The position numbers and the translations under genes are program-made. Shown piece by piece: positions 5,281 to 45,251 of a stretch of 64,000 bases of DNA (positions are counted from its first letter, which is position 1; each line of letters begins with the position of its first letter). The notes beneath the pieces are model-generated. The model did not search any database, was not told the origin of the DNA, and saw only the letters and a list, made by a program, of their open reading frames with translations. The DNA is from Methanocaldococcus indicus (GTDB lineage: Archaea; AGJL01; Methanococci; Methanococcales; Methanocaldococcaceae). The stretch is taken from contig NZ_CP186926.1 of assembly GCF_049554935.1 (NCBI RefSeq), positions 960,001-1,024,000 of the forward strand, written 5' to 3'.

Positions 5281-5776
5281 ATGGATAATTATTTAGAAGA
5301 TGAGCTTATAATTAGAGGAATTGAGATAAATTATCTCTATGTATGCAAAACAAAGCTATTTTATTTTATAAAAGGTATAACAATGGAACAAGAGAGTGAT
5401 TTTGTTGATTTAGGAAAATTTTTGCATAGAAAAAGTTACTTTGGAGAAGAAAAAGAAGTTCAAATAGGTAGTATAAAGATAGATTTTATTAGAAATTCAA
5501 ATGGAATTATTGAGATACATGAAATTAAAAAAAGTAAATCAATGGAAAAAGCTCATATTATGCAAGCTCTTTACTATATTTACTATTTAAAAAAATTAGG
5601 TTTAGAATCAATAGCAGTAATAAATTATCCAAAACTTAAAGAAAAGAAGATAGTAGAATTAACTCAAAAAGATATTTTAGAGTTAGAAAAGGCTTTAAAT
5701 GAAATTAATAAAATAAAATCAATGAAAGAACCACCAAATCCAGAATATAAAAAAATTTGTAAGAATTGTGCATACT

Positions 5777-5796
<20 letters not shown>
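5281..5796 (+). CDS. cas4: Cas4 exonuclease
   Basis: YVCKTKL, KIDFI..EIHEIKKS, QALYY, CKNCAYYELC. Confidence 0.95.
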
Positions 5797-7105
<1,309 letters not shown>

Positions 7106-7163: not shown

Positions 7164-7328
7164 ATTTCCATACCGGGACGGTCTTATTTTAACAGGAGGC
7201 ACATTTTCAATCTGGCAGATAATAACGAGCATCATAAGAACAATGACGGTCTTATTTTAACAAAACATTTATTTATGTGCATACTTCAATATTATAGATC
7301 ATAAGAACAATGACGGTCTTATTTTAAC
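7164..7328 (-). CRISPR. Mini CRISPR array: 1 canonical and 2 chimeric repeats
   Basis: Canonical atttccataccgggacggtcttattttaac 7164-7193; atcataagaacaatgacggtcttattttaac at 7231-7261 and 7298-7328; leader to the right. Confidence 0.9.
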
Positions 7329-7713
7329 AGGAGGCACATTTTAGACATAATAATATAGCAACATAATATAGCAACGTTCTCATATATAAGCTTTTCGGGA
7401 CAAAAATTTTCGGAGGGTAGGTTTCCCTATTCATTTATATACCTTCGAACTTTTATAAAAATCTTTCTATTTAGTATTATTCCACTAAAAACCGTCTATT
7501 CTTAAAAACTAAACTAATTTATCAGGGATTAACCTAAAACTCATAAAAATCTCAGTAAATTATATAATCAAAATATATAAAATATTCAAAATATAAACCC
7601 CCTATGAATTTCTCTAAAAATCCTTTAAATTGAAAATAATCTTCTAAGACACTATAAAATCAAAAAATAAAAATTTTTAGCGTGATAATTATCATCTGAA
7701 TATATAAACTTAT
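7329..7713 (-). promoter_or_regulatory. CRISPR leader 1 with BRE/TATA
   Basis: Homologous along its length to 44860-45251; minus strand cgaaaagcttatatatg at ~7381-7397; 13-bp tandem duplication 7350-7375. Confidence 0.85.
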
Positions 7714-44081: not shown

Positions 44082-44859
44082 ATTTCAATTCCGAGACGGT
44101 CTTATTTTAACAAACTGCCATGTCATATTCTATGCACAGCCTATCCAATATTTCCATACCGGGACGGTCTTATTTTAACTTATTATTAAAAACCCACACA
44201 TCTCGTAGATTTAACCCATTTCCATACCGGGACGGTCTTATTTTAACTTATTATTAAAAACCCACACATCTCGTAGATTTAACCCATTTCCATACCGGGA
44301 CGGTCTTATTTTAACTTATTCTTTGGAAACCTCCCAGCTAAGCCATTTGATTTATCAAACAGTATTTCCATACCGGGACGGTCTTATTTTAACGAGGGGT
44401 GCCTCCCTGGCATTGAATTTGAATTGAGATTTCCATACCGGGACGGTCTTATTTTAACTAGTGATTACACTCCCCAAATTACTGTTGATGATGTCCAAAT
44501 TTCCATACCGGGACGGTCTTATTTTAACAATGTCTGGATGCAAAAAAATAGGGCTTAAAAATGCAATTTCCATACCGGGACGGTCTTATTTTAACTTAGG
44601 TTTAGCAACACCAGATACACTTGACATACCTAATTTCCATACCGGGACGGTCTTATTTTAACCATGACTGTGAAGAATGTAAAAAACTATATGTCATTTC
44701 CATACCGGGACGGTCTTATTTTAACGCTCTGGAAAAGGCTGGTGGATATACTAACACATATCTATTTCCATACCGGGACGGTCTTATTTTAACTGAACTA
44801 ATTAAAAAAGTAAATTCTGAAATTATCAAATTTCCATACCGGGACGGTCTTATTTTAAC
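44082..44859 (-). CRISPR. CRISPR array: 12 repeats (30 bp), 11 spacers (33-48 bp)
   Basis: atttccataccgggacggtcttattttaac x11 plus divergent distal repeat at 44082; leader on the right. Confidence 0.98.
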
Positions 44860-45251
44860 AGGAGGCACATTTTAGACATAATAATATAGCAACGTTCCCA
44901 TATATAAGCTTTTTGGTGCTAAAATTTTCGAAGGGTAGGTTTCCCTATTCATTTATATACCATCGAACTTTTATAAAAATCTTTCTATTCCATATTTTTC
45001 AATTAAAAACTTTTTATATCTAAAAACTAAACCAATTTATCAGGGATTTTTAAATATTAAAAGAAACAACAAAAAACTTCAAAAAATCTCAGTAAATTAT
45101 ATAATCAAAATATATAGAATATTAAAAATATAGACCCCCTCTGAATTTCCCTAAAAATCCTCTAAATTAAAAATATCCTTCTAAAATCCAATAAAATCAA
45201 AAAATAAAAATTTTTAGCGTGATAATTGTCATCTGAATATTTAAATTAATG
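44860..45251 (-). promoter_or_regulatory. CRISPR leader 2
   Basis: Homologous to 7329-7713; TATA-like gcttatatatg on minus strand. Confidence 0.85.

Follow-up and report, generated by a model that had tools for sequence, protein, structure and literature searches.

A spacer-sized insert outside the CRISPR arrays, at the cas4/cas1 junction of a Methanocaldococcus genome, and its 10-nt overlap with a recently acquired spacer

Introduction

Between cas4 and cas1 of Methanocaldococcus indicus, a 39-nt insert (positions 5810–5848) stands between two copies of a 33-bp sequence, outside the CRISPR arrays. We describe this insert within a 64,000-nt stretch of the forward strand (contig NZ_CP186926.1, positions 960,001 to 1,024,000; hereafter the window) and compare it with the spacer at 44726–44763 of the CRISPR array at 44082–44859. 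Unprefixed coordinates are window positions. The prefixes C1 and C2 denote contigs of this genome, with C1 carrying the window.

Nivala, Shipman and Church reportedly described in 2018 a non-canonical spacer integration ('neo-CRISPR') in the type I-E system of Escherichia coli with overproduced Cas1–Cas2. As far as the available description goes, the likeness is that an insert as long as a spacer lies outside any array, is flanked by a duplication approximating the repeat in length, and is attributed to Cas1–Cas2. The present case differs in being natural, without overexpression, in an archaeal type I-B system with Cas4 and inside the cas operon. Its duplication is 33 bp against a 30-bp repeat, and a spacer in the true array appears to record the protospacer-adjacent motif (PAM). 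According to the accessible part of a citing preprint, natural off-target cases are evidenced only circumstantially, in two other species.

In vitro, the off-target sites of Pyrococcus furiosus Cas1–Cas2 resemble the leader–repeat junction, as the present site does in part, and it is the integrase's architecture that sets the paired attacks (available text of PMC6698737). The same text gives paired sites 30 bp apart, a preference for G1/T2/T3 and a C at −3, whereas the maximal duplication here is 33 bp, starts with A, has an A at −3 and comes from an in vivo event fixed in a genome. The T2/M6 motif of Thermococcales and Methanococcales is conserved beside the first repeat and needed for integration, according to the accessible part of PMC13748974. 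The ectopic site copies eight of the last 10 positions of this motif region as it appears in the leaders of its own genome (the comparison was made with these leaders, not with the published logo), but the remainder of the leader is absent there, and position −3 is a purine. Ectopic acquisition in the type II-A systems of Streptococcus thermophilus and S. mutans likewise places spacers away from the leader-proximal repeat (PMC7999890, PMC5338259 and PMC8265633, in the parts available). Genuine internal array repeats are used there, in contrast to the non-repeat DNA used here, although this genome also has an off-register event within an array (C1:441345). Finally, Cas4-dependent PAM selection (Shiimori et al. 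2018, as cited in the available text of PMC13748974) is matched by an insert that would start after CC(A/T), with this end towards the leader-like sequence. One cas4 is present here against two in P. furiosus, and only the footprint of processing is seen.

Off-target Cas1–Cas2 integration is, to the extent covered by these partial sources, already known from overproducing E. coli and from P. furiosus in vitro. New here are that the event is natural and archaeal, that it lies in the operon encoding the integrase, that empty sites provide a control, that the duplication measures 33 bp and that a spacer preserves the putative PAM.

Insertion at the cas4/cas1 junction

The junction contains the following features.

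5281–5796, plus strand: cas4 (Pfam PF01930, E = 1.6e-54; single match genome-wide); its last codons and stop lie within copy 1 of the duplication
5767–5776, plus strand: leader-like motif TGTGCATACT, adjoining the duplication; Cas4 C-terminal coding sequence, 8/10 identical to the leader end
5777–5809, plus strand: target-site duplication copy 1, 33 bp; contains the cas4 stop and a decoy ribosome site and start of cas1
5810–5848, plus strand (taken as the sense strand): ectopic insert, 39 nt; its first 10 nt (5810–5819) equal the last 10 nt of spacer 44726–44763
5849–5881, plus strand: target-site duplication copy 2, 33 bp; contains the working ribosome site and start of cas1
5877–6845, plus strand: cas1 (type I-B Cas1b; TIGR03641, 448.9 bits, cut-off 304.1; single match genome-wide)
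6842–7105, minus strand: cas2, convergent with cas1 (Pfam PF09827, E = 1.5e-22)

The two 33-bp copies form the longest direct repeat at this site, with a period of 72 and no mismatches. The insert falls within the size range of the spacers of this genome (mostly 32–48 nt, one of 24), and the duplication is about, not exactly, as long as the 30-nt CRISPR repeat. Within its own genome, the insert occurs in a single copy (search at ≤7 mismatches). Both genes survive the insertion because copy 1 retains the cas4 stop and copy 2 the ribosome site and start of cas1. A target duplication can thus render an insertion between two essential adaptation genes harmless. As read from the sequence, the start codon in copy 1 now opens a 15-codon frame through the insert. 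The cas1 start at 5877 was deduced from the junctions of relatives; the list of open reading frames (ORFs) starts the gene at 5856.

The junction was present in 14 of 16 same-genus genomes, and the interval 5810–5848 was unmatched in all 14. In the 10 that carry no larger insertion, the flanking BLAST pieces overlap in the subject by about 20–37 nt, as expected for a single-copy site. Three public sequencing runs from one other study (X2, X3 and X4) each contain one contig that joins 5776 to 5849. These contigs omit exactly 72 nt (39 + 33), the 33 nt fitting either side, and are otherwise near-identical to the window (0–3 differences per listed piece). Run X1, which may be the source of the assembly, yielded a 99-nt contig across the insert at a depth of 29 (flanks 23–28), and no X1 contig skips 5810–5848. 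The 33-bp duplication, together with the site being empty in relatives and in one contig of each of the three runs, shows a genuine, strain-specific off-array integration and not an assembly artefact. The perfect duplication suggests a recent event. An event of natural origin is fixed here in an archaeal genome, near-identical strains supply the empty-site control, and the empty-site allele offers a concrete substrate for integration assays.

Target site and orientation of the insert

The leader-like motif before the duplication belongs to the coding sequence of the Cas4 C-terminus, which is conserved in relatives. In most array leaders listed for the genome, TGTGCCTCCT directly precedes the first repeat, and TGTGCATACT matches it at 8 of 10 positions. 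Counted over both strands, 766 of 2,872,924 positions match this leader-end 10-mer with at most two mismatches (2.7e-4 per position), and the chance of such a site adjoining the insertion on either side is about 5e-4. The likeness to a leader–repeat junction is confined to these leader-end positions, as the start of the duplication is not repeat-like and position −3 is a purine.

Because the leader-like motif adjoins the duplication on that side, the plus strand was taken as the sense of the insert. Spacers of type I systems are oriented with their PAM-side end towards the leader. With plus as the sense, the 5810 end is the predicted PAM end, and spacer 44726–44763 gives CCT for exactly that end. 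For the type I-B integrase of P. furiosus, the accessible part of PMC13748974 reports that the non-PAM end is integrated first, on the leader side. In the same source, Cas4 holds the AGG-bearing strand, which after trimming is integrated on the spacer side, and Cas4 fixes both PAM and orientation.

The boundary of the duplication can be read in two ways. The maximal duplication is 33 bp. It is possible that the true duplication is 29–30 bp long and begins at GTTA, the first four bases of the repeat itself (duplication positions 5–8); the last 3–4 bases of the insert would then coincidentally repeat the preceding target bases (chance 1/64 to 1/256). Both readings retain 5810 as the PAM-side edge. 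The longer duplication has parallels in two further duplication–insert–duplication footprints of 31–32 bp at non-canonical sites in the same genome. In vivo duplication at non-repeat DNA would accordingly measure 31–33 bp against the 30 bp of the repeat.

One footprint lies at 7164–7341 (C1:967164–967341), beside cas2, in an interrupted leader. Here, 22 unrelated nt come after a full repeat and the first 14 bases of the leader. Next, a hybrid unit made of 17 nt of repeat and 14–15 nt of other sequence stands on both sides of a 35-nt insert, forming a 32-nt direct repeat; the 14 leader bases then appear again, together with the rest of the leader. The arrangement looks like an integration into a half-repeat with a 31–32-bp duplication. 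A contig of run X2 joins 7207 to 7363. Since X2 has many different spacers beside that repeat, the locus is an ordinary array in related populations. The other footprint, at C1:441345–441440, is an off-register integration within an array: a 31-nt direct repeat, composed of the last 23 nt of a spacer and the first 8 nt of a repeat, flanks a 34-nt insert.

Overlap with spacer 44726–44763

The array that carries the overlapping spacer has the following features.

44082–44859, minus strand: CRISPR array with 12 repeats, of which 11 are exact and the one farthest from the leader has 3 mismatches; transcription proceeds from the leader at the right-hand side
44726–44763, minus strand: spacer, 38 nt, second from the leader; the overlap is 44726–44735
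44736–44738, minus strand: CCT (AGG on the plus strand), the putative PAM of the insert's protospacer, kept inside spacer 44726–44763
44860–44924, minus strand: leader end of the array, 65 nt compared

Exact repeats at 44696–44725 and 44764–44793 flank the spacer (repeat unit 30 nt), and the spacer nearest the leader is 44794–44829. As the leader lies to the right of 44859, the CRISPR RNA (crRNA) sense of the array is the minus strand. On the plus strand, the insert starts with TTTCCAGAGC and the spacer with GCTCTGGAAA, so that the spacer ends with TTTCCAGAGC in crRNA sense. The 10-nt identity ends at both element edges and extension fails on either side: the base preceding the insert is G (the last of the duplication) against T in the spacer, and the base following the spacer is G (the first of the repeat) against A in the insert. 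The three sense-strand spacer bases before the overlap are CCT. An initial annotation of this DNA had reported the overlap, its bounds at both element edges and the CCT before the insert, and every detail was recovered when the sequence was re-read.

From this genome, 82 spacers (80 unique) were extracted; they belong to two repeat families with one common leader type. When the 80 unique spacers and the insert (81 elements) were paired in every end-to-end arrangement, only two end overlaps exceeded 8 nt, namely the 10 nt between the insert and spacer 44726–44763 and the 38 nt of one spacer common to two arrays. Composition-matched shuffles of the insert overlapped by at least 10 nt in 0/3000 trials against 54 unique spacers and in 1/4000 against 80. 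Random genomic 39-mers from this 28% G+C genome did so in 28 of 4000 cases (8 of these at ≥16 nt), and the 354 unique spacers of relatives in 2 of 62,481 pairs. The chance of the overlap alone is roughly 1e-4 to 3e-3. Both elements are rich in G+C for this genome: 42% in spacer 44726–44763 (5th of 80) and 51% in the insert, against a spacer mean of 29%.

The merged 67-nt sequence had also been said to read open. This is true of three of its six frames, but 17% of random 67-nt spacer concatenations have at least three open frames. With random joins equalling it this often, the open reading frame has no discriminating power and was rejected as evidence of contiguity. A 9-nt inverted match (TGGATATAC and its complement) exists between 5835–5843 of the insert and 44743–44751 of the spacer. 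In the presumed 67-nt source, this would amount to an inverted repeat whose 9-bp arms stand 33 nt apart, which does not discriminate between models.

PAM of the repeat family

CRISPR loci matched by a whole-array query over 40 genomes served as the source of relatives' spacers. From those of the same repeat superfamily, 362 spacers were compared with this genome and with 18 loci covering the small replicons of relatives, at a threshold of at least 80% coverage and at least 90% identity. Protospacers were found for 23 spacers, and CC stands at −3/−2 in 18 of them, against a CC background of 3.3% in the main target replicon. At −1, 13 protospacers have A, nine have T and one has C. The five exceptions read TCT, GCC, TCA, GCA and CAT, and GCC becomes CCT if the spacer begins one base later. 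The PAM of the repeat family, as derived from relatives, is 5′-CC(A/T). Within the spacers of this genome, CCN occurs at 2.7% of positions.

The initial annotation had proposed CCN as the PAM of the system, with Thermococcales as precedent. The tally in relatives bears out CCN, and the outcome named beforehand as contradicting it, a different PAM, did not emerge. The precedent itself is an analogy, as this type I-B system belongs to a Methanocaldococcus and not to a member of the Thermococcales. A 5′-CC(A/T) PAM for Methanocaldococcus repeats is useful for virus–host assignment in vent metagenomes.

More than 20 spacers within a run of 26 in one array of a relative (G014, locus L011) match that genome's own 27-kb second contig (L039, L050) at 100%. 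About half of the targets lie within about 4.5 kb, and the replicon coexists with the array targeting it. A spacer of G038, from another genus, matches C1:899427–899459 at 100% with a CCT flank, and one of G011 matches C1:1076006–1076045 at 95%. Both stretches may be integrated elements in this genome.

Origin of the insert

We consider it likely that the insert and spacer 44726–44763 share an origin and that the insert is a PAM-trimmed, correctly oriented prespacer integrated at the wrong target. The argument is that four features are unlikely to come together by chance: the 10-nt overlap, a geometry on one strand, a PAM standing where it is predicted and a partner that ranks with the newest spacers; that both pieces lie in the G+C-rich tail of the spacers supports it further. 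The single type I-B Cas1–Cas2(–Cas4) integrase, the presumed agent of the insertion, would have placed one fully processed prespacer at the junction of the cas4 stop and the cas1 start. Cas4 coding sequence resembling the leader end may have drawn it there, and staggered attacks about 33 bp apart followed by gap repair would have produced the target duplication. The prespacer and the array's second-newest spacer would both derive from one stretch of an invader, the prespacer lying on the same strand and starting 28 nt further on. Beginning directly after CCT, it would have been PAM-selected and PAM-trimmed, with the PAM end towards the leader-like sequence and only the choice of target wrong. 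Two steps of adaptation would be separated at this locus: substrate selection, trimming and orientation were correct, and target choice failed, apparently by ten leader-like bases of cas4.

Several observations weigh against this explanation. The leader-like sequence has an A at position −3, where histone-independent integration in P. furiosus reportedly needs a pyrimidine (available text of PMC13748974). The duplication is 33 bp and not 30 bp; were it 29–30 bp, the 3′ end of the insert would gain 3–4 nt and the leader-like motif would not be directly adjacent. The PAM tally comes from relatives, and 20 of its 23 protospacers derive from the one G014 array against its own 27-kb replicon. Spacer 44726–44763 has CCN at four of 36 positions (four CC(A/T) triplets), which leaves the CCT a likelihood ratio of only about 10-fold. 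None of this genome's own spacers mapped to a protospacer in its own genome, the small replicons of relatives or phages.

The searches for the invader belong here as well. No protospacer was found in the own genome at up to seven mismatches, and exact scans of viral, metagenome and genome contig collections gave no invader match. Among 40 Methanococcales genomes searched at up to three mismatches, only this genome itself was hit and none of the other 39. The best blastn matches to phages and plasmids had E values of 0.4 to 7 and were partial, at chance level, and the whole array matched no phage. The 82 own spacers and the insert gave no full-length match in the 18 loci (small replicons of relatives plus C2), the best match being 20 nt with one mismatch. 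The 67-nt join and its three open translations returned only self matches in the own genome and these loci, and the whole array as a DNA query against the 40 genomes was swamped by other CRISPR arrays and retrieved no protospacers. What had been proposed for the insert therefore holds in part. Its off-array integration and the CCT on the predicted PAM side stand, but the source locus of a PAM-trimmed prespacer was not found. Likewise, the overlap is unlikely by chance, as one invader locus and strand would have it, but mapping of both pieces returned nothing in any collection.

Alternative explanations

Type I-B systems can prime, and the shared origin may have arisen in this way; the initial annotation had called it priming-like. 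In that case, the crRNA of spacer 44726–44763 bound its target, Cas3 processing made nearby prespacers and one of these was mis-integrated. The two protospacers would share a strand with an offset of 28 nt, much closer together than spacers drawn at random from a replicon, and the clustered run in G014 shows that bursts occur in this repeat family. Priming is possible but doubtful, as a single naive burst at a hot spot fits the same pattern. Two elements also allow no statistics on strand bias or gradients, an older spacer with a partial match is not known, and the order of events is not fixed by the data. Lacking real repeats, the insert cannot itself have primed.

Another version has the spacer and the insert arise as twins when a single invader DNA molecule was processed once. 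Staggered breakage would produce 3′ overhangs of 10 nt, and each fragment would keep one strand of the common 10 nt. Both fragments would be loaded on integrase complexes in the same burst, one going to the array and the other into the integrase's own operon. We regard this as improbable. Were it true, prespacer geometry in a type I-B system with Cas4 would have left an in vivo footprint in the 10-nt overlap; along with both off-register footprints (31–32 bp), this would mark a lineage of relaxed target-site choice, a raw material for new arrays.

The insert could also be a true off-target spacer unrelated to spacer 44726–44763, with the 10-nt match and the CCT coincidental. The overlap was noticed post hoc in an open-ended scan for notable features, AT-rich sets do reach 10 nt or more at the rates given above, and the invader searches produced no locus proving contiguity. 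Coincidence nevertheless appears unlikely. The matching 10-mer is 50% G+C, and composition-matched shuffles all but fail to reproduce it; the two elements share one strand relative to the leader-like sequence, and the triplet at the predicted place is the family PAM, against the 2.7% background. The recency of the partner spacer and the unusual G+C content of both pieces would also be left to chance.

A further alternative reverses the insert. With minus as its sense, the protospacers would lie on opposite strands with their PAM-distal ends overlapping, and the CCT would be coincidental. The plus sense rests on the 8/10 leader likeness or on GTTA at duplication positions 5–8, both features of sequence, and the P. 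furiosus integrase in vitro often puts the PAM strand on the wrong side (accessible part of PMC13748974). This orientation is very unlikely, however, given that the other flank, an A/T run, has no resemblance to a leader and that CCT stands exactly where the plus sense predicts it.

That the insert is no integrase product at all, but an assembly artefact or the remnant of a small element, is scarcely credible: four of the 14 relatives (G011, G012, G016 and G004) have larger inserts between two copies of the junction, so the site attracts insertions, but their copies have diverged and lie 152–439 nt apart, as against a perfect 33-bp repeat around a spacer-sized 39 nt here, and the X1 contig covers the insert at the depth of its flanks. 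Homology of the insert or the spacer to the four relatives' elements was also rejected, as local alignments were no better than the best of 200 shuffles in 16 of 16 comparisons.

The junction of the cas4 end and the cas1 start is a recurrent insertion site, at which the insertions of relatives are larger and older. The relatives' inserts (loci L054, L056, L057 and L059 in G011, G012, G016 and G004, respectively) have a core conserved between G012 and G004, and a piece of about 50 nt recurs in this genome at C1:1054135–1054202 and elsewhere. An Rfam search of the four loci gave no match.

CRISPR–Cas system of the genome

The system is of type I-B by NCBIfam models, with TIGR02585 at 153.2 bits (cut-off 72.75) in addition to the TIGR03641 match of Cas1. 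The Cas3 core and HD domains are present, and the Cas5b models score under their cut-offs. At the expected place of Cas8b, a 517-aa ORF matched no NCBIfam model, and its 397-aa part within the window had no Pfam match. The genes cas1, cas2 and cas4 match their models without internal stops and, as judged from sequence, are intact; cas1 and cas4 each occur once in the genome. Between cas6 and the presumed cas8, the opposite strand carries an IS6-family transposase gene (L071:8842–9486, just upstream of the window). The second contig of this genome (C2, 22 kb) has its own small CRISPR array (C2:10793–11141) with the second repeat family and a copy of the chromosomal leader. In a relative (G002), the second contig is 100% identical to a Methanocaldococcus fervens plasmid.

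Identical tandem spacers at 44180–44217 and 44248–44285, and at C1:441798 and C1:441864, are duplications of spacer–repeat units. The spacer at 44459–44498 was considered as self-targeting C1:935499–935538. This was rejected, as the match is the same spacer in a second array of the other repeat family and yields no PAM. One protospacer is thus stored twice, in the window (44459–44498, 40 nt) and at C1:935501–935538 (38 nt), in arrays with different repeat families. The two copies are identical at the leader-side end, whereas at the opposite end the copy in the window extends 2 nt further.

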